NCBI GenBank assembly: GCA_034659135.1 | Contig: JAYEGP010000070.1 | Location: 1 to 53,713, forward strand | DNA: 53,713 bases | Source of the DNA: Campylobacterota bacterium | GTDB lineage: Bacteria; Campylobacterota; Campylobacteria; Campylobacterales; Sulfurimonadaceae | Reading direction: 5' to 3' | Shown here: piece after piece, positions 4,726 to 53,295 of the stretch | How the letters are laid out: each line of letters opens with the position of its first letter | Numbering within the stretch: position 1 is the first letter of the stretch | Translations under genes and position numbers: made by a program | Notes under the pieces: generated by a model | What the model was told of the DNA's origin: nothing | What the model saw: only the letters and a program-made list of their open reading frames with translations | Database searches by the model: none

Positions 4726-5559
4726 CTACATGTAAGATTTCATCTCTTCTAAACGTGCGATACGGTCTTGCGTACTCGGATGGGTACGAAAGAGCGATTG
4801 AAAATTCACCTCGTGCCCACTGAAAGGGTTAACTATAAACATATGCGCCGTTTGTGGCGAAGCGTTGTGAATCTCACCACGACGAGCATGACTCTCTAGT
4901 TTTGAGAGTGCGCTTTGAAGCCACTCTGGATGACCCGTTAACTTAGCCGCACCTTCATCCGCCATATACTCACGATTACGGCTAACTGCCATCTGAATGA
5001 CACTAGCAGCCATAGGCATAAGAATCATTAAGACCAAAGTCACAATAATGTTTTGACGGTTATTAGAATTAAAAAACATCCCAAACTGTGCGAGTAGCGC
5101 AATAGCACCTGCGAGTGTTGCTGCAATCGTGCCGATAAGAATATCGTAATGTTTAACATGGCTCATCTCATGCGCCATCACCGCTTCGACCTCTTCAAGA
5201 GTCAATAGATCAAGCAATCCTTCAGTAATAGCAACAGCAGCATTGTCGGGATTACGTCCCGTGGCAAAAGCGTTGGGCATTGGATCGGGTATGATATAGA
5301 CACTTGGCATCGGTGTTTCTGCGCGATGGGCAATACGCTCAACAATTTCAAAAAGTCCATGAGCTTGGTCGGGACCCACTTCAATGGCATTATAACGTTT
5401 GAGCACCATTTTGTCTGAATTAAAATAACTAAAAAAGTTCATACCCAAAGCAACAACAAAGGCAATCAGCATTCCTGTCTGACCTCCAAGCATCCCTCCA
5501 ACAAAGATCATAAGAAGTGTCATCGCCGTTAAAAGAAAAACGGTTTTAAAAATTTCCAT
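4726..5559 (-). CDS. htpX: Zinc metalloprotease HtpX (M48)
   Basis: 277 aa. It has TM segments, the HEMSHV zinc motif and the [10 protein letters not shown] block. Confidence 0.9.
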
Positions 5560-5584
5560 AAGTGTTCCTTTTTTTTGAAAGAGA

Positions 5585-6373
5585 CTATCTACCTGTTTTT
5601 AGAGTTCTAAGTGCCTCTTCTACATTATCTTGACGCATCAAAGATTCGCCAACCAAGAAAGCATCCACACCCGCTTTATTGAGATCTTCAAGCTGTCCAT
5701 GCTCATAAATACCACTCTCAGCAACAATAATCTTTCCATTAGGAATCAAAGGAATAAGATCATAACAGAGGTTCATATTCATCTCAAAAGTCTGAAGGTT
5801 ACGATGATTAATACCGATAATATCTGCACCGGCGTAAATCGCTTTAGTCAGATCAGTTTTATCATGAACTTCTACTAAGACTTCAAGTCCAAGATGCCTA
5901 GCATAGGCTAAGAGCTCTTTAAGTTCACTACGAGAAAGCGCCGCAGCAATAAGAAGAATGAAATCTGCACCAAAAACCAAAGATTCAAGAATTTGATATT
6001 TTGAGACGATAAAATCTTTTCGTAAGAGTGGAATACCCACATAACGTCGAATACCGGCAAGGTACTCCAAATTACCTTGAAAAAAGTGAGGCTCAGTTAA
6101 AACAGATATCGCATTTGCACCACCACGCTCATACCCCTGCGCTATAGCAAGAGGATCAAAATCTTCACGTATAACACCCTTAGAAGGACTCGCTTTTTTC
6201 ACTTCACTGATTATGCGATAAGGCTGTTCTGGTGTTGAGCGTAAAAAACCACTCACTTCACGCGGCTGTCGTGCATTAAAAGCTAATGAACGGCCTAACC
6301 AATCCATAGTAAACTCTTTTTCTCTAATCGCTAAATCTTCTTTTGTCTTTTTGATGATATCATCTAGTATCAC
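5585..6373 (-). CDS. trpC: Indole-3-glycerol phosphate synthase
   Basis: 262 aa. Motifs [19 protein letters not shown] and IGINHRNL are typical of TrpC. Confidence 0.9.
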
Positions 6374-6387
6374 TTAGGTATCCTTTA

Positions 6388-7659
6388 TCAATTTTTCAAA
6401 CACTCATTGATCGCGTCTATATGCATCTTGACCTCTTCATCATCACCGCCAATCTTATCCGTAACCTGCTTCATAATCTCAAGAGCTTCATCACAACGAT
6501 TTTGATGATAATAACCCCAAGCAAGAGAGTCGAGATAAAAAGCAGATGCCGGCTCAATCTCTAGTGCACGATTGACATACTTTATCCCCTCTGCAACATC
6601 AAGTTGATGATCAATCATTAGGTATCCGAGATAATTTAGCAGAAGCGGTGTCGGTTTTTCACGGATAACTTTTTTAAGCGTATGCATCACATTCTCTAGC
6701 ATCACTTTATCGTTTTTATCTTTGGCACTTTCATAAGAAAAAATAGCACTCTGTCCTAAATAACCAAGCTCACCCTCTTCTTCATACAGCTCTTTGGCAA
6801 GTTTTGCTGCTTTTTCATAATATCCCTTCTCGATATAAAGTTGTAATAATAGGGGATCACGCATGCGACTTTTTTCTAAAAATAGAAGCAGTTGTGGCAT
6901 ATTTTTTTGGTAAGAGTAAATTCGTACAATGGCTTCGCCTACCTCATCATTAGGCTCGCTTTCATACAGGCGTAAATAGGTCGATAACATTCCATCAAGA
7001 TTATTATCTTGCGAATAGAAACTCGCTAGTCTCATACATACTTTTTGTGAACAAGAGTGAAGTCTACTGTGCGACTCAAGCTGCGCAATCGCATCAGCTT
7101 TACGATCAAGATTCACATACAAAACAACTGCCATCTGATCTAAAATCGCTTCATCATAATTAATAGTATAAGCACGTTCAAGATATTTTATAGCGGTGTC
7201 GTAACGCTTCTCTTTTACGTAGATTTCACTGACTAAAAGATAATCTTCAGCCACTTTACTCTCTTCAACTAAGGCAAGTGCCTTAACCTTACCCTCATCA
7301 TATCGACTCGCCGCAATGAGTGCCAAAACCTCAAAACGTCTCACTTTAAAATCATTCGCTTCATTTTCAATATAATAAGCAGACTGCTTTAATAAAGTAT
7401 CATAATCTCCTGCAAGAGAGTAGTTTGTAAGTTCTCTATATTTGTACTCATCCTTACCTGAATTCCGGTATAACATCTCATACAGACCTGCAGCAGCCTC
7501 ATACTCTTCTCTCTCTTGGGCATAAAGCGCATAGAGAATATAAGTATCTTCTTGCTCAAAAGCTTTTTTATGACTCTGTTTGTTAAAATCGACATCGTAA
7601 TGGGTGCTACAACCTATAATAAACAGTAGCGATAATGAGAGAAAAAAGCTTTTAATCAT
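6388..7659 (-). CDS. TPR-repeat lipoprotein
   Basis: 423 aa. Lipobox LFIIGC at the N-terminus. Repeated A..Y......Y..A TPR-like periodicity. Confidence 0.65.
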   Translation of the reverse strand: MIKSFFLSLSLLFIIGCSTHYDVDFNKQSHKKAFEQEDTYILYALYAQEREEYEAAAGLYEMLYRNSGKDEYKYRELTNYSLAGDYDTLLKQSAYYIENEANDFKVRRFEVLALIAASRYDEGKVKALALVEESKVAEDYLLVSEIYVKEKRYDTAIKYLERAYTINYDEAILDQMAVVLYVNLDRKADAIAQLESHSRLHSCSQKVCMRLASFYSQDNNLDGMLSTYLRLYESEPNDEVGEAIVRIYSYQKNMPQLLLFLEKSRMRDPLLLQLYIEKGYYEKAAKLAKELYEEEGELGYLGQSAIFSYESAKDKNDKVMLENVMHTLKKVIREKPTPLLLNYLGYLMIDHQLDVAEGIKYVNRALEIEPASAFYLDSLAWGYYHQNRCDEALEIMKQVTDKIGGDDEEVKMHIDAINECLKN

Positions 7660-8032
7660 CTAATATTCCTGGACACTCACGTTTGAGCTCTTCAACACGG
7701 TTTTTGTAATAATCCCAAAAAGGAAAGGTGCGACACTGCATGGGACGTGCTTCATAAATACGGCATCCCCCATTTTCACGTTCAAAAAAAATACAGTCAT
7801 AAGAATCACCTACTTTTTTCTCTTGAAGTGAAAACTTATACGCTTTCTTGATGAGATACTCTTTATAAAATTGTGCCACATCAATGTTCAATACCTGAAT
7901 GATCTTTTCAATCTCAGATGGTGTTACAAAAATATTACCACTTTCACCTATGCAGCAACGACCGCCACAAGGTTCACATGCAGCTAAATCAAACGCATAG
8001 GGAAAATCATCTTTACGTATTATTGAAGACAT
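7652..8032 (-). CDS. YkgJ-family (UPF0153) Cys-cluster protein
   Basis: 126 aa. CEPCGGRCC motif near the N-terminus and CRIYEARPMQCRTFPFW at the C-terminus. Confidence 0.7.
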   Translation of the reverse strand: MSSIIRKDDFPYAFDLAACEPCGGRCCIGESGNIFVTPSEIEKIIQVLNIDVAQFYKEYLIKKAYKFSLQEKKVGDSYDCIFFERENGGCRIYEARPMQCRTFPFWDYYKNRVEELKRECPGILDD

Positions 8033-8092
8033 TCTTGACTTAATTTTTTAAATTTATGTGATTATACCGTGTCTCTCTTATCTAAGCGTAAA

Positions 8093-8551
8093 TCAACTTT
8101 TTAATAGCATCTCATACTCTTGCAAGATCTCTTCGTATAAAAGCTTTTCATCGACACTTTTCAGATCCAAAATATGGATATAGAGAAAATTTTCACGAAG
8201 CTCTAGGGTGATGGTACCTGGGGTTAAGGTGATAGCATTGGCAAGAAGCAATTGGTCATATTCATTATCCGAAGTCATCTTCAGCTTGATGATGCCAGGG
8301 TTGATAGGAAGTTTTGGGTTAAGGACGATCTTAGCCACTTCGATGTTGGAGAGGATGAGGTTTTTTAAAAAAAGTGGCGTGAAACGTAGATATTTAAATA
8401 GAAGATGTTTTAAATCAATATCACTCTTATCACTAAAGAAGTAAACGATAAAAACACTAACAACAGCTCCGACAATAAGTTCTTGATAATGTAAAGAGTT
8501 GCTCAAACCGATCCAGACGATAAAGAGTAATAGCGCTTTAGCCAACATCAT
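8093..8551 (-). CDS. MnhE/MrpE-like subunit (MbxA-like) of the membrane complex
   Basis: 152 aa. Two N-terminal TM helices and an ..ITLTPGTITLEL.. block typical of MrpE. It overlaps the upstream ferredoxin gene by 4 nt. Confidence 0.65.
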   Translation of the reverse strand: MMLAKALLLFIVWIGLSNSLHYQELIVGAVVSVFIVYFFSDKSDIDLKHLLFKYLRFTPLFLKNLILSNIEVAKIVLNPKLPINPGIIKLKMTSDNEYDQLLLANAITLTPGTITLELRENFLYIHILDLKSVDEKLLYEEILQEYEMLLKS

Positions 8552-8937
8552 TTATCCTTTGGTAAAAACAGAAAATTATTGCTCTGGCTGTCAGCCCAGA
8601 TACATTCGCTTTCAAGCTTGAGTGAATCAGGGGGGCAGACATCGGTACAGAGACTGCACCAGCAACAGCGGCCATAATCGATTCGTGGAATACAGCCGCT
8701 ATTATTTTTAGAGTTGCGATCGACATCAATGGGAATCATATCAATCGCTTCATTCATACAGACATCCTGACAGTTTGCACAGCCGATACAATCCTCAAGT
8801 AAATTGGTGTGAAAGCCTCGATAGCCCTCAACCTCCTCTTTTTTCTCTTGGGGATAGCAGAGGGTATCGGGATGCTCAAGTACTTTTTTAACAGCAAAAA
8901 AAGGTCCCAGTGTTCCTTTAATATCAAATTTCATCAT
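8548..8937 (-). CDS. 2x[4Fe-4S] ferredoxin subunit, NuoI/MbxN-like
   Basis: 129 aa with two CxxCxxCxxxC motifs: CIGCANCQDVC and CCWCSLCTDVCP. Confidence 0.8.
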   Translation of the reverse strand: MMKFDIKGTLGPFFAVKKVLEHPDTLCYPQEKKEEVEGYRGFHTNLLEDCIGCANCQDVCMNEAIDMIPIDVDRNSKNNSGCIPRIDYGRCCWCSLCTDVCPPDSLKLESECIWADSQSNNFLFLPKDK

Positions 8938-10044
8938 CTACCTCTCAATCTCAGGGGGACAGATGCCCAATGAGTTCATAATCATGGCGACATTAGAGAG
9001 CTCTTCATTTTCAAGAAGCGTCTCTAAGAGTGTAAAGCCATGAATCAGTGAAGGTCCTTTAACCTGCATACGACGGATATATTCACTGCCATCACCTGCC
9101 ATGTAATACCCAAATTCCCCACGTGCCGACTCTACGGCAACGTAAGTATCGTCTTTAGGCAGTTTAAACTTACGATGTTTAGGAATTTTCTGCATAATAG
9201 CGCCCTCTTTAGGCATCTGAGTTATCACTTGACGTAAAATTTTCACTGATTCACGCAGTTCGGCGCGACGTACCAAAGCACGGGCGTAAACATCGCCTCC
9301 ATCAAAGCTAGGAATCTCAAAATCAAAATTTTCATAACCCAGATAGGGATTATCACGGCGCAGATCATGTTTAATCCCGCAGCCGCGAAGCACTTGCCCG
9401 ACATAGCCATTACGCAGAGCCTCATCAGCATTGACAACACCGACACCGATGGCACGTTTTTTAAAACTGGCATTATCAAAAAAGATGCGGTCATACTCTA
9501 TCAAGCGCTTCTCAAAATAGTCCAAAAACTCGCCCAAACGCGCTAAGAAGTTCTCAGGTAATTCACGACGCACCCCACCTGGATAGATGTACATATGATA
9601 CACACGCCCACCGGTTAAGGCTTCAAAAAGGTCTAAAATAAGATCTCTATCGTAAATACTCCACTGTCCTACGGTAGCCAGACCTACCGATCCGCTCTGG
9701 CCGCCCATCCAGAGCAGTTGTGTTGCCATTCGTGCCATCTCTAATACCATCACACGGATCATTGTCGCTTTCTCACTCACTTCAATGCCTGTGAGGTTTT
9801 CAACGGCCATGGCAAAGTTTGCCTCGTTGGGATCAGGTTCGGGTACACAGATACGACAGACAATCGTAAAGGCTTGAATGATAGTACGGCGTTCAATGAG
9901 CTTTTCAAAACCACGGTGCAGATAGCCTACATGGGTTTGTGCGCGGGTGATGGTCTCACCACGCAGATCAAGTTCAACGCTCATATTTCCCGTGATACCC
10001 GGATGTTGAGGGCCATGATAGATTGTGATAATCTCACGATTCAT
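8938..10044 (-). CDS. NuoD / group-4 hydrogenase large-subunit homologue with an incomplete [NiFe] Cys set (MbxL/MbsL-like)
   Basis: 368 aa. The N-terminus YHGPQHPG...HVGYLHRGFEKL is typical of the NuoD/HycE family. The N-terminal metal motif reads RICVPE instead of RxCGxC. The C-terminal motif reads ICPPEIER instead of DPCxxCxxR. Confidence 0.85.
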   Translation of the reverse strand: MNREIITIYHGPQHPGITGNMSVELDLRGETITRAQTHVGYLHRGFEKLIERRTIIQAFTIVCRICVPEPDPNEANFAMAVENLTGIEVSEKATMIRVMVLEMARMATQLLWMGGQSGSVGLATVGQWSIYDRDLILDLFEALTGGRVYHMYIYPGGVRRELPENFLARLGEFLDYFEKRLIEYDRIFFDNASFKKRAIGVGVVNADEALRNGYVGQVLRGCGIKHDLRRDNPYLGYENFDFEIPSFDGGDVYARALVRRAELRESVKILRQVITQMPKEGAIMQKIPKHRKFKLPKDDTYVAVESARGEFGYYMAGDGSEYIRRMQVKGPSLIHGFTLLETLLENEELSNVAMIMNSLGICPPEIER

Positions 10045-10573
10045 TCTTGGCCTCCTTGAGAGCTTTCGCTTCCGCGCGGCGACGTTTCATCTCAACTTTA
10101 ACATCTCTGTTATCATCGCGTCCCCCTCTAAAGTCATAATGCTCATTGACATAAGCCAAGGTGTCAAACTCACGACGCATCGGGGGAATCTCTTTCCAAT
10201 CTTCTAAGGCAAAATCGTAAAGCGTTTCATTGCCCTCAAAATGTATCCCAAACATCTCATGAAGTTCGCGCTCCATCACTTCAATTTGTGCAAACTGATT
10301 ACTGAGTGTCGGCAGTGTCACATCATCACGTCCAATGTGAATCTCTACCATCAAATTAGCATCGCGTTTATCGGTTGTTAAAAGGTAATTGAGTGCAAAG
10401 ATTTCCTCTTCGATCCAATCGGTACATGTCAGCTGAGAGAGCGTCTTAAAATCACTGATACTTGTCACATGGGCAAGGGTTTCAAGTAGTGATTCACTGC
10501 TTACATGTAACTTATAAAGTCTTGGACTTTTTTCTACGATATCATAATGCGTTTGCAATGGTGTTATCATCAA
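10034..10573 (-). CDS. NuoC (30 kDa)/MbxK-like subunit
   Basis: 179 aa. The block ERELHEMFGIHFEGN is typical of NuoC/HycE N-domain proteins. It overlaps both neighbouring genes. Confidence 0.8.
   Translation of the reverse strand: MMITPLQTHYDIVEKSPRLYKLHVSSESLLETLAHVTSISDFKTLSQLTCTDWIEEEIFALNYLLTTDKRDANLMVEIHIGRDDVTLPTLSNQFAQIEVMERELHEMFGIHFEGNETLYDFALEDWKEIPPMRREFDTLAYVNEHYDFRGGRDDNRDVKVEMKRRRAEAKALKEAKNES
10501..10510. repeat. Iterated palindrome TTACATGTAA (exact)
   Basis: Inside the NuoC/MbxK-like CDS, read as L-H-V on the minus strand. The flank gives CTTACATGTAA. Confidence 0.95.
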
Positions 10574-11181
10574 TTCATCCCTGCAAAATTCTCTTCAAAA
10601 CGTGGGGCTATAGCGTCTCCGAAGAGTTTTTTCTGGTTTGTAAGATAAAAGTCGTAATTGTTTTTATACTTCATATATCCAGCGGTTTCACTGTCATCTT
10701 TGATCGTCTCCTGGAGTTTCACAAAACCCTCTATCAGCGCTTCGGGTCGAGGCATACAGCCATTGACATACATGTCCACAGGAAGATAATCATCAAGTTT
10801 TTTTATGGTGTTATAGCTGTCCCAATACATCCCGCCATTAATGGTGCAGCTTCCCAAACCGATGATATATTTAGGCTCATTCATCTGTTCATAAGAGCGG
10901 ATCACCCGCTTGAGCGTTTTAGGCGAACAGTACCCTGAGACAATCAAAATATCTGCTTGTCTCGGGGTCGCAACACCCACGACTCCTAAACGTTCAATAT
11001 CATAGCGGCTTGTAAAGGTTGGCGGCATCTCTATCGCCCCACATCCCGTTCCATAAGCCAGAACAAACATACTTCGTGCGCGAAACCATGCAATGGCTTT
11101 TTCAACGACACTTTGGGTACTTTTAAGCTCATGTTCTTCTGCTTCTAATGATTGGTGATACTGTGTAAATCCTTCATCCAT
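10570..11181 (-). CDS. NuoB (20 kDa)/MbxJ-like Fe-S subunit
   Basis: 203 aa. Motifs GTGCGAIEM, GSCTINGG and GCMPRPE correspond to NuoB/small-subunit cluster-binding motifs. Confidence 0.85.
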   Translation of the reverse strand: MDEGFTQYHQSLEAEEHELKSTQSVVEKAIAWFRARSMFVLAYGTGCGAIEMPPTFTSRYDIERLGVVGVATPRQADILIVSGYCSPKTLKRVIRSYEQMNEPKYIIGLGSCTINGGMYWDSYNTIKKLDDYLPVDMYVNGCMPRPEALIEGFVKLQETIKDDSETAGYMKYKNNYDFYLTNQKKLFGDAIAPRFEENFAGMN

Positions 11182-11191
11182 TTCCCACTCC

Positions 11192-12064
11192 TTAAAGCAT
11201 CAATAAACCCGCTATCCCGATAAGAGTCGGAATACGGATAAGAAACTCTACACTCTGAATCGTACTCAGACGCGCATAAACACTACCCACAAAAAGGGCA
11301 CTAATAAATAAAATAAAGGTCTTTATAATCAGATCGAGCAGTGAATCTGCTCCGCCTAAAAAAAGATTAACCATCAAAAGCAGTTTTGCAAAAGAGAAGA
11401 TAGCACTCTGACTCATTGCCAGTGCAAAAAACTTTCCACTCAATTCGCTCGCAGGCCCACTATAGACTTCAGGCGGTGCGCCGACAACATCAAAGGGTGA
11501 TTTTCCCATAAATCCCACAAAGGAGATAAACGCGGCAATAAAGAGAAGCGGATGCGCCATCATGTTACATGTAAGACTCTGATTGGCCATAATAACATTC
11601 AGATCGGCACTCTCATTGGCAATCATCAATCCAATGGTGGCGATATAAAAGGGAAGCTCCAGCCCAATAAGCCGACTCAGTCCCCGTGTCACACCCATAA
11701 CACCAAAGGGGTTACCATTACTTCCCACACCCAAGGCATTTCCAAGTGGACCAAGTACCATAAGGTATAAGATCACAATGAGATTACCATAGGAACTAAA
11801 ACCTTGCAGTGTCACACCATCATTAAAAAAAGGAATAAAAAGCACGGTCATCATCGCACCCGAAGCCATGATAATCACACCCGCGTAAAACATCCAGCCA
11901 AAAGAGGTGCTGCTACTTTTTAAAAAGAGCTTGATACTATCAAAAAAAGATTGGGCGATCGAAGGCCCAAAGCGTTTATGAATACGCGCGGTGATGTTAC
12001 GATAGAGTCCGTAATATAAAAAGCCAAAACTATAAGCCATAAAGAGCATCAAGAGACTATCCAT
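11192..12064 (-). CDS. NuoH/HycD/MbxM-like membrane subunit
   Basis: 290 aa, polytopic. The N-terminal RIHKRFGPSIAQSFFDSIKLFLK resembles the NuoH signature. Confidence 0.7.
   Translation of the reverse strand: MDSLLMLFMAYSFGFLYYGLYRNITARIHKRFGPSIAQSFFDSIKLFLKSSSTSFGWMFYAGVIIMASGAMMTVLFIPFFNDGVTLQGFSSYGNLIVILYLMVLGPLGNALGVGSNGNPFGVMGVTRGLSRLIGLELPFYIATIGLMIANESADLNVIMANQSLTCNMMAHPLLFIAAFISFVGFMGKSPFDVVGAPPEVYSGPASELSGKFFALAMSQSAIFSFAKLLLMVNLFLGGADSLLDLIIKTFILFISALFVGSVYARLSTIQSVEFLIRIPTLIGIAGLLML
11565..11574. repeat. Iterated palindrome TTACATGTAA (exact)
   Basis: Inside the NuoH/MbxM-like CDS, read as L-T-C-N. The flank gives TTACATGTAAG. Confidence 0.95.
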
Positions 12065-13680
12065 TAGGCGACTCCTATCATGAGTAAAAGGGTAAAGAAG
12101 AGTAAAATAAGGATCGCGACATTTTGGACACAGAGCTTATAAAAACTTTGAATCAGCCCAGAACTCTCACCCGCCATACGGCTCACACGAGACCAAAAAC
12201 GCGCAGAAGTGTGTCGTAAGATGAGACCGATAAAACTGATACGACGTAACTCCTCTCCCATTCCAAAACCGTAATGCAGGTTTTTACTCTCATGAGGAAC
12301 TTCGCCACAATAGCTGATATCGAGTCGATCTTTGGGTAAAACCGCTTTGGAACTCAGACGCATCACACCGAGAAGAATCAGCACAAAAAGCGTGCCAAAT
12401 ACCGCCATCAACACGCCACCATTAAAGGAGGCAAATGGGGTGCTAAGTTCAAAAAGAGAGCCGACACTTTGCGCCTCTAAGCCTAAACTGAGAAGAATCT
12501 CATTAAAAAAGCTACGTGGTAAGGCGGGCAAAATACCCAAAACAACTAAGATAACAGCGCTAAAAACTTGAGGGATATAGAAGCTTTTAGGAACATCTAA
12601 ATACTCTTGATGATGGCTAGGCTGTCCGAGATAGATGCCATAAACCAATTTATAGCAATATAAAAAGGCCGATGCCGAACTAAACATCACCGCAGTCAGC
12701 AAGAGCGCTTTTTGCGATGATAAGAGTGAGGTGTAGATAAGAAACTTACTGTTAAAACCACCCAAGAGTGGCATACCTGCTAAAACAATAATCCCAATGA
12801 CCAAAAGTACAAACAGAAGTGGAAATTTATAAATCAAGGCACCCAGATCACTAAAAGCAGTCTTACCGCTAATGGCAATCACGGTAGCGATATTAACAAA
12901 AAGCAGCAGTTTCACCAGGGTATGAATGAGCGTGTGATAGAGCGCCGCTTCAATGGCAACACTGTTAAGCAGGGCTAAAACAGTAATAATATAACCCAAC
13001 TGCGCCATAGATGAGTAGGCTAAAAGACGTTTCATCTCATTTTCATTAATGGCTTTAAAAGTGGCAACAATCGAAGTGAGTACCCCCATCCACGCCATAA
13101 AGTCAAATACCACTTCAGGAGTGTTGCTGCCTTTTAAAATCTGTGTAAAAAAGAGAATAAAAACAAAAATACCCGCTTTAGAAAGGATAGCACTCAGCAG
13201 TGCGCTAAAAAGATCATCGGCCTGCTCATAGCTATCCACCATCCAGTGATGCAGGGGCATTACACCTGACTTGACAAAGATAGCGATAAGAAGTAACAGA
13301 GCGATGGCAATGCTGAGATTTTCAGAAATAGCCGAAGCATCAATAGCCTCATAAAGCATACTTCCCCCATAGCTGTAGATAAGCACAATCGCACCCAAAA
13401 GTGAAAACGCTCCCGCAAGATTGAAGATTATATACTTCTGTAAAATCGCTTTTTGTGCACTTTTAGCAAGAATAAAATAACTACTCCATCCCATGATCTC
13501 CCATCCGATAAACAGAGTTATCATATCCGCGGCGTAAAAGATCATGCCCAGCCCCAAAAGCAGAAGCAGATGCAGGAAAAAATCATGCTGTTTTGACTTC
13601 ACTATGAACAGTGTCACAAAGACAAAGAGAGAGAGTCCAAAAAAGAGATGTCCAAGCATGGTCGCTTCAAAGTGAAACAT
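12064..13680 (-). CDS. Antiporter-like (NuoL/M/N, MrpD family) subunit, second copy (MbxH'-like)
   Basis: 538 aa, polytopic. It has the Proton_antipo_M-type core (..WEIMGWSSY.., ..LAYSSMAQLGYI..). Confidence 0.8.
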   Translation of the reverse strand: MFHFEATMLGHLFFGLSLFVFVTLFIVKSKQHDFFLHLLLLLGLGMIFYAADMITLFIGWEIMGWSSYFILAKSAQKAILQKYIIFNLAGAFSLLGAIVLIYSYGGSMLYEAIDASAISENLSIAIALLLLIAIFVKSGVMPLHHWMVDSYEQADDLFSALLSAILSKAGIFVFILFFTQILKGSNTPEVVFDFMAWMGVLTSIVATFKAINENEMKRLLAYSSMAQLGYIITVLALLNSVAIEAALYHTLIHTLVKLLLFVNIATVIAISGKTAFSDLGALIYKFPLLFVLLVIGIIVLAGMPLLGGFNSKFLIYTSLLSSQKALLLTAVMFSSASAFLYCYKLVYGIYLGQPSHHQEYLDVPKSFYIPQVFSAVILVVLGILPALPRSFFNEILLSLGLEAQSVGSLFELSTPFASFNGGVLMAVFGTLFVLILLGVMRLSSKAVLPKDRLDISYCGEVPHESKNLHYGFGMGEELRRISFIGLILRHTSARFWSRVSRMAGESSGLIQSFYKLCVQNVAILILLFFTLLLMIGVA

Positions 13681-15064
13681 GAGAAACTCCTAACATCGCT
13701 TTCGCGGCTTCGTGTGTGAGCTCTAGAAGCGCTTCTGGCATCACGCCAAGCCCAAGTAGCACAAGCATCATCACACCTAAAAGTGCGCCTTGATTCCATG
13801 ATAGTGAGAGCGCTTCTTTCTCACCCTTATGCCGTAAGCCACCCAGAAGTCTAAAAAGATAGGCCGCTTCAACAAGTGAGATGCTCAAGATGAGTCCTAT
13901 CATGAGATAGGCTTCTTGACTTGCCAGACCTTTTAAGATACTCAACTTGGCAATAAAACCGGCAAAGGGAGGAATGCCAAGCAAGGATAAAAAACCCACA
14001 ATAAAGACCAGTCCAAGAAAAAGTGATTCAAACTGGGTAAAAATGACACTTTTGGTACTCTTAAAGTGATGCTCTAAAATATCCAAACCCATAAAAAGCA
14101 TTATCTTAGCAATCGCATGCACTACGATCAAAAAGAGTGCCGCGCTCACCAAAACCTCATCGGCAAAACTCAGTGCTAAGAAAATCACCCCAATCTGACC
14201 TAAGCTTGAATACGCAAAAACACGTTTAAGCTCACTACTTTTAAGCGCCGAAAACTCTGCTACGCCAAACGAGATGATCCCGATCACACTTAAAAAAGCC
14301 AACTGTTCACTGCTTACATGTAAGAGATAGACCAGATGAAAGAAGAGAAAGAGATAACTCTTAGAGAGCATGGCACTAAAAAGTCCACCAACACTACTTC
14401 GTGAGGCCTGATAAATATCAGCCACCCAGAGATTGAGTGGAAATATCTCTGCTTTGATTCCAAATCCGATAAACAAACAGAGTAAGATTAAAAATTGTAG
14501 TGAGGCTTCAAGGGTATGAAAACGCTCCGCAATAAGCGTAAGATTGAGCGCACCCGTGCCTAAGTAGATCAGCATAATCGCTAAAAGTAAAAAGAGTGAT
14601 GCGATCATCCCGATAATCATATAGCGAATCGCACCGCCATAAGCCTTGGCATCACGGTTAAGTGAGGTTAAGATATAAGCACTGATACTCGCTATCTCAA
14701 AAAAGATATAGATATTAAAGATATCATGGCTCATAACCAGACCAAAGACACCCACACTGAGCATATTAGTCGTAATGAAGAGTGCTTTATCTGAAGGTGC
14801 ATTCAGACGATAGAGTGAAAATACCAGCATCATACTCGAAAAGAGCATGACAAAGAGTGCAGAAGCCTGATCGAGGACAAAACTGATGGCCAGAGGGGAG
14901 TCAAAAGCGATACGTTCAACGATAGGGAGTGATTCATAAAGCGAAATGCTCATCATGACAAGCAGACCATAGAGCATGAGCGCCACGAGATTGAGCCATC
15001 TAAGGAAAAAAGGGCTTAAGAAACTTAGCAGCAGTGGTAAAGCGATAAAGTAGAGCAGACTCAT
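13667..15064 (-). CDS. Antiporter-like (MrpD/NuoN family) subunit (MbxH-like)
   Basis: 465 aa, polytopic. Blocks ..FAYSSLGQIGVI.. and ..FFEIASISAY.. are present. Confidence 0.8.
   Translation of the reverse strand: MSLLYFIALPLLLSFLSPFFLRWLNLVALMLYGLLVMMSISLYESLPIVERIAFDSPLAISFVLDQASALFVMLFSSMMLVFSLYRLNAPSDKALFITTNMLSVGVFGLVMSHDIFNIYIFFEIASISAYILTSLNRDAKAYGGAIRYMIIGMIASLFLLLAIMLIYLGTGALNLTLIAERFHTLEASLQFLILLCLFIGFGIKAEIFPLNLWVADIYQASRSSVGGLFSAMLSKSYLFLFFHLVYLLHVSSEQLAFLSVIGIISFGVAEFSALKSSELKRVFAYSSLGQIGVIFLALSFADEVLVSAALFLIVVHAIAKIMLFMGLDILEHHFKSTKSVIFTQFESLFLGLVFIVGFLSLLGIPPFAGFIAKLSILKGLASQEAYLMIGLILSISLVEAAYLFRLLGGLRHKGEKEALSLSWNQGALLGVMMLVLLGLGVMPEALLELTHEAAKAMLGVSHVSL
14314..14323. repeat. 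Iterated palindrome TTACATGTAA (exact, full 12-mer CTTACATGTAAG)
   Basis: Inside the MbxH-like antiporter CDS, read as L-H-V. Confidence 0.95.
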
Positions 15065-19888: not shown

Positions 19889-19894
19889 AAGAGC

Positions 19895-41881: not shown

Positions 41882-41898
41882 GAATTTTAGAAGTCGCC

Positions 41899-41908
41899 TT
41901 ACATGTAA
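41899..41908. repeat. Iterated palindrome TTACATGTAA (exact)
   Basis: Left arm of the 28-bp palindrome between convergent genes. Confidence 0.95.
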
Positions 41909-41912
41909 AGCT

Positions 41913-41922
41913 TTACATGTAA
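41913..41922. repeat. Iterated palindrome TTACATGTAA (exact)
   Basis: Right arm of the 28-bp palindrome between convergent genes. Confidence 0.95.
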
Positions 41923-41928
41923 GGGATA

Positions 41929-43338
41929 TTATGGATTATTGATAAAATAACGCTCAATTCCTTCGGTAATACCAGTAGCCAAACGCTCTTGATATTTTTT
42001 ATTCACCATACGCTCTGCTTCTGTAGGATGCGATATAAAACCAATTTCAAGCAAAACTGCTGGCATTTGAGCCCCAACTAAAACCCAAAATGGCCCTTCA
42101 CGAACTCCATTATCTTTGATATCTTTATAATGCTTACGAAGATTTGAAAGTATCCCCTGCTGAAGATCAATAGCTAACTTATTTGAAGCAATAATCTTTT
42201 CACGGTTCATAAAATTCAGCAGATTATTTTTTCCAAAATAGTTCATATCTTCAATCTCTTTTGAATTTTCAATGGCAGCGACACGAGTAGCACGACTGCT
42301 TCGTGAACGTGATAGAAAATATGTCTCTATCCCTTTTGCTTTTAAAGCATTTTTCTTAGGTACGGAATTCGCATGAATAGAGATAAAAATATCTGCTTTT
42401 TTCTTATTAGCATACTGGGTTCGAGTACGTAATTTAATGAACTTATCTTTTGTTCGTGTTAAATAGACAGTAATACCATCTCTACGCAAGCGCTTTGCTA
42501 CAGCGTTAGCTACCTGCATGACTACAACTTTCTCTCTATACTTTTTATGTCCTACTGCTCCAGCATCTTTACCTCCATGTCCTGGGTCAATAACAACAAT
42601 TTTACCTTTTGGTATTGCCACGCTGTTTGGAGGTTTTTTTGTCGGTTTTGGCTTTTTAGACGTCACATGACTACTCTCTAAATGAGGAAAAACAATGAGT
42701 CTCTTCCCATCAAGCTTAAATCGTAAATTTAGTTTGTTCTCACTCTCAATGACAAAACGTAGCATATCGTTTTTCTTTTGAGCAATACGGATACGCTTAA
42801 GCTTTTTATGCTGAAGATGTATCGTACTGTTTTTTCTTGCATGAATATCAAAAATATATTTGAAACTTTTTTTCTTCTCATCAAGAAGCTTAAAAAAATT
42901 CACATCTGTGCTACGAAGTTTTTTATCAAACAGCAGTTCTAAGGTACCCTTTTTCCATTCTCCCTTTTTGAGTATGTTCTGATCTCTAATGGTAATTTTT
43001 TTTGCCGTAGCTGTTGAAGTACTCTTTTTTTGTGGTGTACTTTTAAGCGGTTTTTTTGCAGATTTTTTTAAAGTATTAAGCTCTTTTTGATATTGCGAAA
43101 TGTCAATATGCAGTTTTTTACCCGAAATGACAATACCCTGCAGCGCTTTTCGACGTTCGGTAAGATTAGCATGCATCATGGAACGTAGATAGACATTTTT
43201 ATAGTCATTATAAGCGCGAAAGACCTCTGTTTTTGAAGGACTCTTTGTCAATTTATCTGCGCGCTTTAAAATATCACTGTTATCTGCAGCTACAAGCAAG
43301 CTTACATGTAAAAGAAGGAGAAAGAAGAGGCGAAGCAA
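41929..43338 (-). CDS. N-acetylmuramoyl-L-alanine amidase (AmiA/AmiC type) with a signal peptide and a Lys-rich linker
   Basis: 469 aa. VVIDPGHGGKDAGAVG, FISIHANS, and ETYFLS. Confidence 0.85.
   Translation of the reverse strand: MLRLFFLLLLHVSLLVAADNSDILKRADKLTKSPSKTEVFRAYNDYKNVYLRSMMHANLTERRKALQGIVISGKKLHIDISQYQKELNTLKKSAKKPLKSTPQKKSTSTATAKKITIRDQNILKKGEWKKGTLELLFDKKLRSTDVNFFKLLDEKKKSFKYIFDIHARKNSTIHLQHKKLKRIRIAQKKNDMLRFVIESENKLNLRFKLDGKRLIVFPHLESSHVTSKKPKPTKKPPNSVAIPKGKIVVIDPGHGGKDAGAVGHKKYREKVVVMQVANAVAKRLRRDGITVYLTRTKDKFIKLRTRTQYANKKKADIFISIHANSVPKKNALKAKGIETYFLSRSRSSRATRVAAIENSKEIEDMNYFGKNNLLNFMNREKIIASNKLAIDLQQGILSNLRKHYKDIKDNGVREGPFWVLVGAQMPAVLLEIGFISHPTEAERMVNKKYQERLATGITEGIERYFINNP
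43302..43311. repeat. Iterated palindrome TTACATGTAA (exact)
   Basis: Inside the amidase signal-peptide region, read as L-H-V. The flank gives CTTACATGTAA. Confidence 0.95.
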
Positions 43339-49650: not shown

Positions 49651-49660
49651 TTACATGTAA
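49651..49660. repeat. Iterated palindrome TTACATGTAA (exact)
   Basis: Intergenic, 8 nt upstream of the M3 peptidase ATG (TTACATGTAAGGATCATAATG). TACAAT lies 6 nt upstream. Confidence 0.95.
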
Positions 49661-49668
49661 GGATCATA

Positions 49669-51624
49669 ATGAATAACTCACCTTTTTTAGAATTTAATAT
49701 CAATTTAGATACTTTCATTGAAGAGCTGACGCTAAAACTTAATATGAACAGAAAAAAAATCGACTCTCTTTTAGCAATAAAAGAGAAAGATTACGCTAAT
49801 TTTATCAAGCCTTTTGAACTCATGGATGAATATTTAGATCAGTTTTTTACGCCGCTATCGCATATCAATGCAGTTAACAACTCTGAACAGACTCAAAAGG
49901 TTTATGCAGATTCACTACCACTCATGAGTGCTTATGGTACAGAAATTGGTCAAAACCTTGATATTTTCAAAGCCATTCAATTCATTAAAGAGAATGAATA
50001 TGAAAACTTAAACTATGAACAACAGCGTGTTATTGATCTCAATATTTTGCATTTTGAACTTAGTGGTGCTGCACTCGATGCTAGTAAAAAAGAGCGTCTC
50101 AAAGCGATTAATTTGCGAAAAAGTGAACTCAGTAATGACTTTTCTCAAAATGTTCTCGATGCCACTAATGTTTATGAAAAAATTATCACTAATGAAGCTG
50201 ATATCAAAGGAATTCCTCAGAGCGATTGTGACAGTGCTCAATGTGAAGTTGATGGAAAACCTGCATGGAAATTCACGCTTCAAATGCCTTCATATATTGC
50301 GTATATGACCTATGGGGCAAATCGAGAGATTCGTGAAGAACTCTACAAAGCTTACACAACACGTGCACCTCAAAATGCGAAAATCATTGAAGAACTTCTT
50401 TCTCTTCGACTTGAGAAGGCTCAACTGCTCGGATTTAAAAGCTACGCTGAGCTTTCACTAACAAGTAAAATGGCTCCAGACACCGATAGTGTTGTCAATT
50501 TTCTAGACGAACTTGCAAGTAAATCTCATAAACAAGCTCAAAAAGAGCTTAAAATACTTCAAGAGATGAGTCAAGAACCCCTACTGAGTTCTGATACCGC
50601 TTTTTATTCGCAAAAACTTAAAAAAGAGCGTTATTCACTTGATGAGGAGGAGTATCGTCCTTATTTTGAACAACATAACGTACTAAGCGGTCTATTTAAT
50701 TTTTTAAATAAACTCTTTGGCATCCGTTTTGAAAGTCTTACATGTAAGCTTTGGCATGAGAAAGCATCTGCCTATGATCTGTATGTCAACGATACATTAC
50801 AATCTCGACTCTATCTCGATTTAGAAGCTCGTAAGGATAAACGTGGTGGTGCATGGATGCACAATTGGCAAGCACACTGCAGTAATGAGAAAGGAGAAGA
50901 GCAACTCTCTTCAGTTTTTGTAGTCTGTAATTTTCCAGCTTCATCAGAATCAACCCCTTCACTACTGCGTCATGATGATATTGTGACACTTTTTCATGAG
51001 ATGGGACATGCCCTTCATCACATGCTCTCAACTGTCAATGAAAATGGAGTAAGCGGTGTTAATGGAGTCGAATGGGACGCCGTAGAATTCCCTTCTCAAT
51101 TTTTAGAAAATTTTGCCTATGAGCCAAAAGTTTTAAAACTTTTTGCGAAACACTATCAGAGTAATGAAGTGATTAGTGATGAGATGATATCTCGACTTGA
51201 ACGTACCAAGAATTTTCAATCAGCTATGTCAATGTTACGCCAGTTAGAGTTTTCGAGCTTTGATTTCAAACTGCATATGAGCTCATATAGTGGTGATGAG
51301 GTTCAGAACTTACTCGATAGCATAAGAGAAGCAACCTCTCTTATAAAACCGCCATCATATAATAAATTTCAAAATGGCTTTACTCATATATTTTCTGGTG
51401 GATATGCAGCAGGTTACTACAGCTACAAATGGGCAGAAGTTCTCAGTGCTGATGCCTACTTTGCTATTGTCGATCAAGGTATATTCAATACAAAACTAGG
51501 AAAAGATTATTTAGACATTATTCTATCCAAAGGTGGAAGTAAAAGTATGCAAGAGCTTTTCTATGAACTCTTAGGAAGAGAACCACAAACACAAAGTCTT
51601 CTACGACTTAACGGGATTGTGTGA
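49669..51624 (+). CDS. M3-family zinc oligopeptidase (oligopeptidase A / Dcp type)
   Basis: 651 aa. HEMGHALHH followed by EFPSQFLEN. Confidence 0.9.
   Translation: MNNSPFLEFNINLDTFIEELTLKLNMNRKKIDSLLAIKEKDYANFIKPFELMDEYLDQFFTPLSHINAVNNSEQTQKVYADSLPLMSAYGTEIGQNLDIFKAIQFIKENEYENLNYEQQRVIDLNILHFELSGAALDASKKERLKAINLRKSELSNDFSQNVLDATNVYEKIITNEADIKGIPQSDCDSAQCEVDGKPAWKFTLQMPSYIAYMTYGANREIREELYKAYTTRAPQNAKIIEELLSLRLEKAQLLGFKSYAELSLTSKMAPDTDSVVNFLDELASKSHKQAQKELKILQEMSQEPLLSSDTAFYSQKLKKERYSLDEEEYRPYFEQHNVLSGLFNFLNKLFGIRFESLTCKLWHEKASAYDLYVNDTLQSRLYLDLEARKDKRGGAWMHNWQAHCSNEKGEEQLSSVFVVCNFPASSESTPSLLRHDDIVTLFHEMGHALHHMLSTVNENGVSGVNGVEWDAVEFPSQFLENFAYEPKVLKLFAKHYQSNEVISDEMISRLERTKNFQSAMSMLRQLEFSSFDFKLHMSSYSGDEVQNLLDSIREATSLIKPPSYNKFQNGFTHIFSGGYAAGYYSYKWAEVLSADAYFAIVDQGIFNTKLGKDYLDIILSKGGSKSMQELFYELLGREPQTQSLLRLNGIV
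50738..50747. repeat. Iterated palindrome TTACATGTAA (exact, full 12-mer CTTACATGTAAG)
   Basis: Inside the M3 peptidase CDS, read as L-T-C-K. Confidence 0.95.
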
Positions 51625-52637
51625 TACGTTCTCTAATTTTACTTATATTTGTAACATCACTCTGGGGAGATATCGTGCGCATAGCAAGCTACAATGTTGA
51701 AAATTTATTTGATCTCAACTACAACCATAGTGAATATGTTGAATATATCCCTAATACCTCTTGGAAATGGAATAAAAAAAATCAAGGAATAAAACTAAAA
51801 AATATCTCAAGAGTGATTACGGATATTCAGCCAGATATTATTGGACTTCAGGAGATAGAATCAGAAGAGGTTCTAAAAGATCTCAAAAAAACAGTTCAGC
51901 AAAATGGTCTTTACTATAAATATCACGCCATTGCAGATGCAAAAAACACTAATATTAAAGTAGCATTACTTAGTCGTTATCCCATTATATATATCAAAGA
52001 ACTATGGGTTACATCAAGCAGAAGACATCGCAATATACTAGAAGCTAAACTCACTATAAACGGTGAATCGCTTTATATTTTTGTCAATCACTGGAAAGCG
52101 AAAAGTGGCCCAGAGAGCAAACGCATTGTCTCTGCTAAAGTATTAAAACAGAGAATCGATGAACTCGGACATAATAAAGCCATTATTATTATGGGCGATC
52201 TTAATAGTCACTATGAAGAATATCTACTGTTTAAGAAAAAACGTAAACATAACGATACACAAGGGATTACTGGAATCAATCATATACTTAAAACAATGAA
52301 TAGCAACACTCCTGTCTTAATCAATGATCTTTTTACATGTAAGGACTGTCTTTATAATCTCTGGTATGATTTAGACGTACCAGAGCGTTGGACACATTCC
52401 TTCAGAGGTTCTAAGGAATCACTTGATAATATTATTATTTCAAAAGGTTTAGTAGATAAAAAAGGTATCGACTATATCCCCAATACATTTCAACGTTTTA
52501 ATCCTAAGTATCTTATCAAATATAAAAAACCCTATCGTTGGCAGAAAAGTCGTAACTATCCCAAACATCATACAGGAAAAGGTTACTCAGATCATTTTCC
52601 AATCTTTGCAGATTTTCAAACTACAGACACCAATTAA
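51621..52637 (+). CDS. Endonuclease/exonuclease/phosphatase (EEP) family protein, secreted
   Basis: 338 aa. Signal peptide, SYNVENLFD, GLQEIES, GDLNS and SDHFPI. Confidence 0.75.
   Translation: MIRSLILLIFVTSLWGDIVRIASYNVENLFDLNYNHSEYVEYIPNTSWKWNKKNQGIKLKNISRVITDIQPDIIGLQEIESEEVLKDLKKTVQQNGLYYKYHAIADAKNTNIKVALLSRYPIIYIKELWVTSSRRHRNILEAKLTINGESLYIFVNHWKAKSGPESKRIVSAKVLKQRIDELGHNKAIIIMGDLNSHYEEYLLFKKKRKHNDTQGITGINHILKTMNSNTPVLINDLFTCKDCLYNLWYDLDVPERWTHSFRGSKESLDNIIISKGLVDKKGIDYIPNTFQRFNPKYLIKYKKPYRWQKSRNYPKHHTGKGYSDHFPIFADFQTTDTN
52333..52342. repeat. Iterated palindrome TTACATGTAA (exact)
   Basis: Inside the EEP nuclease CDS, read as F-T-C-K. The flank gives TTACATGTAAG. Confidence 0.95.
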
Positions 52638-53295
52638 TTATTTTTTTGCCATGTGATTCTAAATAAGTATTAGTTTTCGAAAATGGCTTTGAACCAAAAA
52701 AACCTCGATAAGAAGAGAGTGGTGATGGATGAGGAGCTTCAAGAACTAAATGCCTATTTGAATCAATCAAAGATCGCTTTGACTGCGCAGGACGACCCCA
52801 TAAAATAAAAACTACATGTAAGGCTTCATCACTAATTTTTTTAATGACTGCATCTGTAAATTTCTCCCATCCATAGCCTCGATGAGAATTTGCTTCATTT
52901 TCCCTAACAGTTAATACAGTGTTAAGTAAAAAAACTCCTTGCGTAGCCCAGGGAGTTAAATTACCAGATTTTGATATGTGACATCCAATATCATCCTCTA
53001 GCTCTTTAAAAATATTTAACAAGGATGGAGGATTTTTTATATCAGCTTCTACAGAAAAAGAAAGACCATGAGCCTGACCAACACCATGGTAAGGATCCTG
53101 ACCTAAAATAATCACTTTAATCTCTTTAAAGGCTGTCATATGAAAAGCATTAAAAATATAATTTGATTCTGGAAAAATTGTGTAACTTTTTTGCTGATCC
53201 ATAAGAAAAGAGTTCAAATTCAAAAAATACTCTTTTTGAAATTCTTCATGTAAAAGTTCTAACCAATCGGATGGTAATTCTGTATTAATTGTCAT
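52621..53295 (-). CDS. ung: Uracil-DNA glycosylase
   Basis: GQDPYHG, the HPSPLS motif and LLNTVLTV. The start is trimmed to MTINTELPSDW (ATG at 53295) because the track ORF (to 53379) runs into the 5S rRNA gene. Confidence 0.9.
   Translation of the reverse strand: MTINTELPSDWLELLHEEFQKEYFLNLNSFLMDQQKSYTIFPESNYIFNAFHMTAFKEIKVIILGQDPYHGVGQAHGLSFSVEADIKNPPSLLNIFKELEDDIGCHISKSGNLTPWATQGVFLLNTVLTVRENEANSHRGYGWEKFTDAVIKKISDEALHVVFILWGRPAQSKRSLIDSNRHLVLEAPHPSPLSSYRGFFGSKPFSKTNTYLESHGKKIINWCL

Follow-up and report, generated by a model that had tools for sequence, protein, structure and literature searches.

What keeps a ten-base palindrome, TTACATGTAA, at 14 exact copies scattered through unrelated genes and intergenic DNA of a single stretch of bacterial chromosome? 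The stretch is contig JAYEGP010000070.1 of assembly GCA_034659135.1 (53,713 nucleotides (nt), hereafter the window), from an uncultured, Sulfurimonas-like member of the Campylobacterales whose FlhA protein has a top identity of 77% among species representatives. The palindrome was first pointed out from the letters of the window alone (the sequence-only reading). We find that the feature is real, strong and replicated across lineages, and we tentatively interpret it, at a probability of about 0.45, as a symmetric and possibly methylation-read tag of self DNA that would bias uptake or recombination and would have spread by drive.

All counts within the window cover its full length of 53.7 kb; the list of open reading frames (ORFs) spans 95.5% of it, and the intergenic remainder is 2.4 kb. 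Background expectations were obtained from dinucleotide-preserving shuffles (n = 100) and from Markov models of orders 1–5. The comparison set consisted of syntenic loci from 80 metagenome contigs (1.02 Mb), with further loci from GTDB species representatives and from homologues of one Mbx subunit (four look-ups); individual loci are given L numbers. Motif-rich lineages were sampled over about 160 kb in two chromosomal neighbourhoods, and the motif-rich loci pooled for near-cognate counts comprise 129 kb. The same organism is represented elsewhere only by short Logan contigs (n = 4), which are 99.94–99.98% identical to the window and are therefore uninformative on population polymorphism at the word sites.

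Abundance of the palindrome

The 14 exact copies of TTACATGTAA in the window compare with 0.13 expected from the shuffles, in which the maximum was 2 and no replicate (0 of 100) reached 14. The sequence-only reading had listed the same 14 coordinates, all of which are correct, and had estimated that far below one copy (about 0.2) should occur by chance. Counted on both strands, 28 occurrences were observed versus 0.1–0.2 predicted by window-based Markov models of orders 1–4; the corresponding order-5 expectation of 2.9 is inflated and circular, because the motif's own 6-mers enter the model. TTACATGTAA is the commonest 10-mer of the window, its sub-words top the lists of 8- to 12-mers, and the enrichment is about 100-fold in the window and 240–350-fold in relatives.

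Five near-exact copies of the form TACATGTAA start at 4727, 19321, 24232, 38485 and 52813, as had been reported. Our recount likewise gives 24 ACATGT hexamers, the 19 that had been assigned to the context of the word lying inside the 8-mer TACATGTA, for which 0.88 occurrences are expected. All single-mismatch variants of the 10-mer in the window (5 of 5) deviate at the outermost base, and single mismatches at inner bases are absent (0 vs. about 1.8–2.7 expected).

Symmetry, flanking bases and dialects

A preference for C in the flank was found on 16 of the 28 sides (57%), compared to a background of about 0.19 (p = 8 × 10−6). From the observation that every copy has C on the left or G on the right, the sequence-only reading had taken an asymmetric 11-mer to be the conserved unit. 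The rule itself holds in all 14 copies; the asymmetric unit was rejected, given that an independent preference of 57% per side suffices to produce the rule (p = 0.058) and that position ±6 is A/T in L012 and L162. The site is thus best described as symmetric, with information decaying outwards. Two copies, at 14314 and 50738, form the full 12-mer CTTACATGTAAG, in agreement with the earlier count. A polar word of the Chi or KOPS type was also rejected, the word being palindromic and its C-extended 11-mer being split between 9 occurrences on the plus strand and 7 on the minus strand; GC (guanine plus cytosine) skew is negative in 9 of 10 5-kb windows.

What stays invariant from lineage to lineage is the 8-mer TACATGTA. 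At position ±5, the dialect of the window has T/A and a second dialect C/G, with mixed bases in L207 and a weaker preference in L224, and position ±6 is weak, with C/G on about half of the sides in the window dialect and T/A in the second one. This second dialect, CTACATGTAG, occurs in L180 and L195, mostly as T-CTACATGTAG-A; in L180, 6 copies were found versus 0.02 expected, and these are all 6 ACATGT hexamers of that locus. Mixed YTACATGTAR forms occur at low density in L207, L179 and L185.

Comparison of the flanks revealed no match between copies beyond about 12 nt, with the exception of one pair in the window that shares 18 nt, within the limit of about 12–18 nt given before. The pair (10493-10510 and 14306-14323) has TTCACTGCTTACATGTAA in common and encodes the peptide LHVSSE in unrelated Mbx subunit genes, and two copies in unrelated genes of L224, around 5460 and 12450, have TTACATGTAAGCCCCAAAA in common. 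Both pairs are outliers from an otherwise geometric distribution of flank matches, and these shared stretches of 18–19 nt may be traces of templated copying between copies.

Codon choice and amino acid replacements at genic copies

Nine of the 14 exact copies lie inside genes, and the word is read there in two frames only, xTA-CAT-GTA (Leu-His-Val, L-H-V) and xxT-ACA-TGT-AAx (Thr-Cys-Lys/Asn, T-C-K/N). The third frame, which contains TAA, had been reported only at a stop or start codon, and its only case is the stop codon of htpX. Codon choice within these tripeptides is close to saturation: 6 of the 8 L-H-V tripeptides in window ORFs are spelled TTA-CAT-GTA, compared to 4.7% expected from codon usage (p = 3 × 10−7), and the word is carried by 6 of the 7 T-C-K/N tripeptides. 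The tripeptides themselves are in excess, with 8 L-H-V observed versus 2.6 expected (about 3-fold) and 7 T-C-K/N observed versus 0.72 expected (about 10-fold), in a window where Cys accounts for only 0.8% of residues. In L224, which has 55% GC and where TTA makes up 4% of Leu codons and GTA 12% of Val codons, L-H-V is spelled TTA-CAT-GTA in 10 of 11 cases, and none of the 16 coding copies is in the stop-containing frame. The word therefore leaves an imprint on the proteome.

We further compared three coding sites (in the rrf2, amidase and M3 peptidase genes) with their orthologues. No indel was found at any of them, and at two of the three, different residues stand in orthologues that lack the word. 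All 68 aligned loci of rrf2 are of equal length and the Cys is conserved, but the Lys needed to complete the word is absent from the 67 other loci, most of which have S or G there. The copy in the amidase gene gives the signal peptide a His within its hydrophobic core, which is the case only in the window and its sister L144. In the M3 peptidase, S-L-T-C-K stands in place of K-V-D-E-M, again with no indel; the motif-less L159 has V-D-E-M, and the peptidase of L211 has its own copy four codons upstream of the site in the window. L-H-V is a common native tripeptide in the 465-amino-acid (aa) antiporter-like family, so that synonymous changes alone are needed there. Taken together, the lack of indels and the codon saturation indicate that point substitution, not insertion, gives rise to the word, at positions that are compatible with it or under weak constraint. 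The sequence-only reading had seen the DNA word, and not a peptide or a long mobile repeat, as the target of the pressure, and this is borne out by the codon saturation, the tripeptide excess and the residue swaps without indels, as well as by unrelated flanks and by recurrence in independent lineages. Selection or drive on the DNA word, acting against codon preference, is thus supported.

The same comparisons bear on the possibility that the copies are remnants of mobile elements, either a miniature inverted-repeat transposable element (MITE) or a repeat of the repetitive extragenic palindrome (REP) type, or a 6-bp footprint, TA-CATG-TA, left by an IS630/Tc1-type element at TTAA or CTAG. The two dialects match the targets TTAA and CTAG, and TACATGTA is what we take to be the canonical Tc1-type footprint; TTAC is presumably the target of IS608 (IS200/IS605 family of H. 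pylori), and GTAG/CTAC presumably the tetranucleotide of REP sequences and RAYT transposases. In the sampled DNA, none of the copies was associated with an IS200/IS605 element. The footprint was rejected at the three sites tested, where no 6-bp insertion relative to orthologues was found (rrf2 having the same length in 68 of 68 loci), and the codon saturation of L-H-V shows an origin by point substitution. A MITE or longer repeat was rejected on the same lack of indels and because 9 of the 14 exact copies are coding and flanks are unrelated beyond 12 nt, one pair per lineage excepted. We consider a mobile-element origin very improbable.

Intergenic copies, hairpins and ribosome-binding sites

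The other 5 of the 14 exact copies fall into the 2.4 kb of intergenic DNA, which corresponds to a 12-fold excess in density (p = 2.5 × 10−4). Three of them end 5–9 nt ahead of annotated start codons (19124 on the minus strand, 38155 and 49651). Followed by GG, the word yields TAAGG at Shine-Dalgarno distance at 19124 (19124-19135, minus strand, 6 nt before the ATG of a methyltransferase gene) and at 49651 (49651-49663), and the copy at 41913 (41913-41924) places TAAGG ahead of the ATG of an unconfirmed ORF; at these three sites, the word-derived TAAGG sits 5–7 nt before the ATG. Judging from this spacing, the intergenic copies could double as Shine-Dalgarno sequences, a use that may add to the preference for G in the flank.

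The exact copies at 41899 and 41913 combine into a 28-bp palindrome without mismatch, CCTTACATGTAAAGCTTTACATGTAAGG, which spans 41897-41924 between the convergent genes for the 356-aa DHH-like protein and the amidase. As RNA from either strand, this palindrome has a predicted fold of −16 to −19 kcal/mol, and inverted pairs between convergent genes in three lineages have stable predicted hairpins of −14 to −21 kcal/mol. The same intergenic spot has the local dialect in L144, L180 and L195.

A flexible insert and phage contigs

The kdsB and rpsO genes are adjacent in 19 of 42 relatives and 17.9 kb apart in the window, and the spot between them is a hotspot of variable content within the family. 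The insert in the window (19889-37738), a cluster for chemotaxis and signalling, contains cheA, cheW, cheY, cheR and cheB, genes for a methyl-accepting chemotaxis protein (MCP), a PAS protein and a ParA-like protein, and HD_5, SiaC and DUF6272 genes. It carries 1 exact and 1 near-exact copy of the word, compared to 13 exact and 4 near-exact copies in the remaining 35.9 kb (p = 0.02–0.03); if the accessory-looking first 4.7 kb of the window are added to the insert, p = 0.003, for a segmentation that was picked after the data had been seen. The motif-poor parts have lower GC, and composition therefore does not explain the contrast in density. Two paralogous pairs of DUF6272 and SiaC-family genes, at 2813-3739 (plus strand) and 22241-23176 (minus strand), look like duplicated partner-switching regulatory cassettes in low-GC, motif-free DNA; the former pair has SpoIIE-type phosphatase, HipA-like kinase and AraC-type genes as neighbours.

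The word was also identified in viral contigs. L102 (IMGVR_UViG_3300026382_000037, 1002-13865), a temperate phage contig with an integrase, a Sak annealing protein, a single-stranded DNA-binding protein (SSB) and a tail protein J, contains 5 exact copies and 1 near-exact copy over 13 kb, one of them in a tail gene. It may derive from a phage of a motif-rich host, and its copies bear on whether the word is written inside the cell. In the viral contigs L116, L131, L101, L115/L124 and L095/L108, TTACATGTAA is the core of longer conserved palindromes (e.g., ATCTTACATGTAAGATA and ACACTTTACATGTAAAGT), which are clustered in short regulatory regions in most contigs and spaced along the contig in L116. 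These palindromes look like operator or promoter arrays. A phage origin of the word was rejected because the viral 10-mers are mostly cores of such longer, clustered, operator-like palindromes, which is a different phenomenon.

Occurrence in related lineages

Hyper-abundance of the word extends to at least six further uncultured lineages of Campylobacterales with 36–55% GC, the hosts of the word overall spanning 31% to 55% GC, and the density in word-carrying loci is one copy per 1.3–3.8 kb. We identified 4 exact copies in 10 kb of L144, whose 356-aa DHH-like protein is 86% identical to that of the window; 4 exact and 7–8 core copies in 18 kb of L012 (the same as L166) and L162, from a Helicobacteraceae metagenome-assembled genome (MAG); 7 exact copies in 21 kb of L211 (vs. 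0.02 expected); 3 exact copies and 1 near-exact copy in 13.6 kb of L160; and 2 exact and 2 near-exact copies in 12.8 kb of L165. In L226 (GCA_022729835.1, 52% GC), all 8 ACATGT hexamers found in 11 kb are part of TACATGTA, as are 17 of 18 in 21 kb of L224 (GCA_016938735.1, 55% GC; 0.07 expected). Copies in L224 and L226 are found also in genes that are non-syntenic with the window (CorA-region genes, YfiH-like, cytochrome b and mfd), which argues against a site bound to one conserved chromosomal domain. A single Cu-oxidase_4 (YfiH-like) gene of 747 bp in L224 (5015-5761) has five core copies, far above even the high average density of that genome.

Between the window and L144, which share 78% nucleotide identity over the compared region, the copies at 41913 and 43302 are conserved exactly, and at three sites only one of the two has an intact copy, that of the other having decayed through an indel or several changes. 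Sites in the 30-kDa and 465-aa Mbx subunits are common to the window, L224 and L226; with L-H-V near saturation, convergence explains this sharing as well as common ancestry does.

The distribution and density of the copies also bear on an explanation in which the word is selected, not driven, as a closely spaced array of sites for a dimeric protein that associates with the nucleoid, organises the chromosome or acts as a global regulator. A symmetric 12-bp site with information decaying outwards is typical of a dimeric DNA-binding protein; the operator-like phage palindromes share the 10-mer core, hence there are proteins able to read this sequence; three of the intergenic copies are no more than 10 nt from a start codon; and the sampled loci, coming from two chromosomal neighbourhoods, leave room for a domain-restricted site. 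The arrays of matS/MatP, NBS/Noc, SBS/SlmA and parS/ParB resemble the word in that a symmetric site of 12–16 bp is repeated along the chromosome. However, these arrays have tens of copies per genome, often in one domain, and are not imposed on coding sequence, whereas the density found here is about 10 times that of matS, Noc, SlmA, parS and ram sites. On this count the likeness to Noc, SlmA, MatP and ParB arrays that the sequence-only reading had drawn is a poor fit, and its other analogues, the DNA uptake sequences and HIP1 discussed below, are fitting. Furthermore, 9 of the 14 exact copies are genic, with a cost to amino acid sequence and codon use, copies are also present in genes whose neighbourhoods are non-syntenic (in L224, for example, on both sides of the Mbx cluster), and the word is absent from close relatives that have the same genes, which speaks against an essential architectural role. 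Given the density and the coding cost, we regard a binding-site array as improbable.

Comparison with known systems and weighing of the explanations

Our literature searches found no account of this word in bacteria, and no uptake-sequence-like or HIP-like element in Campylobacterota, in line with the earlier statement that no described function was known for it there. DNA uptake sequences (DUS; GCCGTCTGAA and its dialects in Neisseriaceae) and uptake signal sequences (USS; Pasteurellaceae) are words of 9–12 nt that, like the one described here, are enriched hundreds-fold on both strands in genic and intergenic DNA, have an intergenic excess and, between convergent genes, occur as inverted pairs that form hairpins, which in DUS and USS resemble terminators. 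The resemblance extends to inflated encoded tripeptides and the occupation of poorly conserved residues, to scarcity in flexible or recently acquired DNA, and to dialects round an invariant core (here TTACATGTAA and CTACATGTAG). For USS and DUS, inflated tripeptides, a location at poorly conserved residues and scarcity in genes without homologues in relatives have been described (Findlay & Redfield, PMC2817400), and the DUS dialects of Neisseriaceae keep an invariant core (Frye et al., PMC3630211).

With the cyanobacterial highly iterated palindrome HIP1 (GCGATCGC) and the alternate HIPs, the word shares a hyper-abundant palindromic 8-mer core in coding and non-coding DNA, deviations at the outermost bases, lineage-specific replacement variants and an interior of the methyltransferase-target type. 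HIP1 is a palindromic octamer with end-base deviations and replacement variants (Elhai, PMC4390886). Unlike HIP1, the word belongs to another phylum and is an AT-rich sequence kept even at 52–55% GC; moreover, HIP1 is near-universal in cyanobacteria, whereas the word occurs in a minority of related lineages. Recent findings bring the HIP1 and uptake analogies closer to each other: in Synechococcus PCC 7002, transformation is more efficient with methylated HIP1 (bioRxiv 10.1101/2024.09.10.611283), and the abundance of HIP1 is correlated with a group of DNA-uptake genes (bioRxiv 10.64898/2026.06.24.733823). Within the same phylum as the window, uptake by C. jejuni is restricted to DNA that bears methylation at the palindrome RAATTY (PMC10046745), so that a palindromic self-DNA mark for uptake (methylated RAATTY, CtsM) has a precedent there. 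However, base composition alone makes the degenerate 6-mer RAATTY frequent; it requires no enrichment and has no proteome imprint, in contrast to the approximately 16–20 bits and strong drive of the word described here.

On the strength of these likenesses, we infer a link to DNA uptake or recombination, possibly with methylation. Under this explanation, TACATGTA, extended in the window to (C)TTACATGTAA(G), would be a lineage-specific tag of self DNA, and its reader would be a sequence-strict factor that acts symmetrically on duplex DNA, either a dimeric protein or a methyltransferase whose mark is read. Tagged DNA would be favoured in natural transformation, at the step of uptake or of recombination, and mutations that create perfect copies would be preferentially fixed (molecular drive). 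Copies would then build up where they are tolerated, namely in intergenic DNA, in hairpin pairs between convergent genes and before starts (with TAAGG serving as ribosome-binding site), and, within genes, in the two stop-free frames at native L-H-V or at poorly conserved residues.

Several observations weigh against a self-DNA tag. We found no TACATGTA in 61 related loci (700 kb), and in a neighbour-joining tree of a single protein, the 356-aa DHH-like one, motif-rich lineages are scattered among motif-free sisters, with an exact number of independent gains and losses that is uncertain for a single-gene tree; the distribution of DUS and USS, by contrast, follows phylogeny. DUS and USS are asymmetric, whereas the word is a perfect palindrome. 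USS and DUS show an excess of one-off copies, whereas one-mismatch neighbours of the 8-mer core of the word number 34 in the 129 kb of motif-rich DNA compared to 52–60 predicted from the densities in motif-poor relatives or from Markov values calibrated on them (p = 2 × 10−4 to 6 × 10−3). This depletion of about 2-fold affects all base changes at central positions and leaves outer positions unaffected, which suggests all-or-none, enzyme-like recognition, with graded specificity only at the outermost base of the 10-mer. In addition, genome-wide spread is something we infer from DNA of two chromosomal neighbourhoods; Pfam and NCBIfam annotation of the 53.7-kb window yielded no DNA methyltransferase, restriction, competence or receptor gene; and our literature searches found no documentation of natural transformation in these uncultured lineages.

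At the ends of the 10-mer, deviations are enriched: outer-base variants number 10 versus 1.1 expected in the 129 kb, and 10 of the 14 single-base deviations in the pooled set are at the first or last base. Avoidance of ACATGT as a restriction site was rejected, because a 3.7-fold depletion in motif-free relatives that low-order models indicate is gone at Markov order 3 and above (93 observed vs. 98.5–99.7 expected under order 3–4 models) and is thus an artefact of composition.

Near-cognate counts of this kind are relevant to the alternative that the word is a by-product of the HIP type, which requires no function of it. In this scenario, a mobile methyltransferase, or a nuclease-methyltransferase pair, acting at (T)ACATGT(A) would cause methylation-linked biased repair or gene conversion that turns near-cognates into perfect sites, as in Elhai's model of HIP1. 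The palindrome contains classic Type II targets (CATG and ACATGT), and deviations from the 10-mer at the end bases (5 of 5 in the window, 10 of 14 pooled) are as in Elhai's HIP1 (PMC4390886). The approximately 2-fold depletion of core one-offs fits a converting sink, the patchy phylogeny and the gradation in density are as expected if a mobile determinant is gained and lost, the temperate phage contig has dispersed copies including the one in a tail gene, and the 18–19 nt shared by copy pairs in unrelated genes hint at occasional templated copying. However, neither the window nor the sampled loci contain a DNA methyltransferase or repair nuclease that we could find, and the loss of near-cognates covers all central base changes, not just the C-to-T changes of deaminated methyl-C repair. 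To our knowledge, Campylobacterota lack MutS1/MutL/MutH mismatch repair. Outside the word, ACATGT is neither avoided nor enriched under a tetranucleotide model (93 vs. 98.5), and recent work on HIP1 leans towards transformation, such that this alternative overlaps with the self-DNA tag. On balance, we consider the by-product explanation less probable than the self-DNA tag.

A related candidate is a mobile motif-writer, a sequence-strict enzyme system (e.g., a methyltransferase or nuclease coupled to repair or recombination) that would itself convert near-cognates to perfect TACATGTA. Such a system would act on all resident DNA, prophages included, rewriting codons and amino acids, and its alleles would write different dialects. 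It would account jointly for the patchiness, the all-or-none specificity, the depletion of one-offs irrespective of the base change and the copy pairs that share 18–19 nt; taken by itself, we nevertheless judge it unlikely. Patchiness, the all-or-none core and the drained pool of one-offs keep well in play, as a less probable alternative to the self-DNA tag, the two ideas together, that is, a by-product of repair or conversion or an active motif-writer.

Individual copies and neighbouring genes

The genes that carry copies are unrelated and of the housekeeping type, namely four subunits of an Mbx/Mrp-type complex, a TrmN/PrmC-like methyltransferase, kdsB, cheA and rrf2, together with genes for an Amidase_3 protein, the M3 peptidase and an EEP-family nuclease, ung and htpX; searches with Pfam and NCBIfam confirmed the gene identities given in the sequence-only reading. 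In the Mbx/Mrp-type complex, L-H-V copies lie in the Complex1_30kDa-like subunit (10501-10510, exact) and in the 465-aa antiporter-like subunit (14313-14324, full 12-mer), both with the word at the orthologous position in L224 and L226, and further exact copies lie in the NuoH-like subunit (11565-11574, T-C-N) and the MrpF-like gene (16787-16796, T-C-K). The complex is encoded by a 13-gene cluster (8093-16983, minus strand) that is conserved in L224, L226 and L228 and comprises MNHE, Fer4, 49-kDa, 30-kDa and Oxidored_q6 subunits, the NuoH-like subunit and two antiporter-like subunits, together with NuoK-like, MnhB, MbhD, PhaG and MrpF genes. As called (16684-16983), the MrpF ORF overlaps its neighbour by 100 nt, and its true start is therefore probably further downstream.

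The only methyltransferase gene near a copy (18420-19115) encodes a small protein of the RNA/protein type, not a DNA methyltransferase, with a resemblance to TrmN/PrmC that is below NCBIfam cutoffs; it carries an exact copy at 18548-18557 (L-H-V). As the cause of the word it was rejected, being TrmN/PrmC-like and keeping its adjacency to kdsB in motif-free relatives. The exact intergenic copy at 19124-19133 lies between the divergent methyltransferase and kdsB genes. Near-exact copies of the form CTACATGTAA are found in kdsB (19320-19329, T-C-K), in rrf2 (38484-38493, T-C-K), in ung (52812-52821, L-H-V on the minus strand) and at 4726-4735, where TAA terminates the M48/HtpX gene (4726-5559, minus strand). 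The near-exact copy ATACATGTAA is intergenic (24231-24240), 6 nt downstream of a response-regulator gene (24246-25559, minus strand) in the motif-poor flexible segment 19889-37738, whose sole exact copy is in cheA (27815-27824, L-H-V).

In the remainder of the window, the exact intergenic copy at 38155-38164 ends 9 nt upstream of the rrf2 start codon, and the exact copy at 43302-43311 is in the signal-peptide region of the amidase (LLLHVSLL). The exact intergenic copy at 49651-49660 is part of a TAAGGA that overlaps the Shine-Dalgarno region of the M3 peptidase gene (ATG at 49669), and its counterpart in L144 is decayed (TTTAATATGTAAGG); the peptidase gene itself has a full 12-mer at a variable position (50737-50748, T-C-K). 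An exact copy at 52333-52342 (T-C-K) lies in the gene for the EEP-family nuclease (51621-52637, plus strand), a protein with a weak resemblance to ExeM/NucH extracellular endonucleases, under the NCBIfam cutoff, that could be relevant to the processing of extracellular DNA.

Implications

Hyper-abundant short words are well understood in two bacterial families only, those with DUS and USS, and HIP1 has been enigmatic for thirty years. The word described here would be an independent, high-information, palindromic case in another phylum, and it offers natural contrasts that the classical systems lack, namely close lineages that differ in whether they carry the word, two or more dialects, and hosts that range from 31% to 55% GC. 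Owing to the patchy distribution, the causal gene can be searched for by comparing the gene content of motif-rich and motif-free MAGs, and the same comparison can separate uptake bias, methylation-linked repair, or both, as the origin of the word. Proteins are reshaped by it, and the His in a signal peptide, the extra Cys codons and the rare codons in a GC-rich genome amount to a measurable cost of drive. The word is also usable as a marker for binning and host assignment of vent Campylobacterota and their phages. A motif-writer, if true, would amount to a novel form of targeted genomic drive that differs from a passive bias in uptake.

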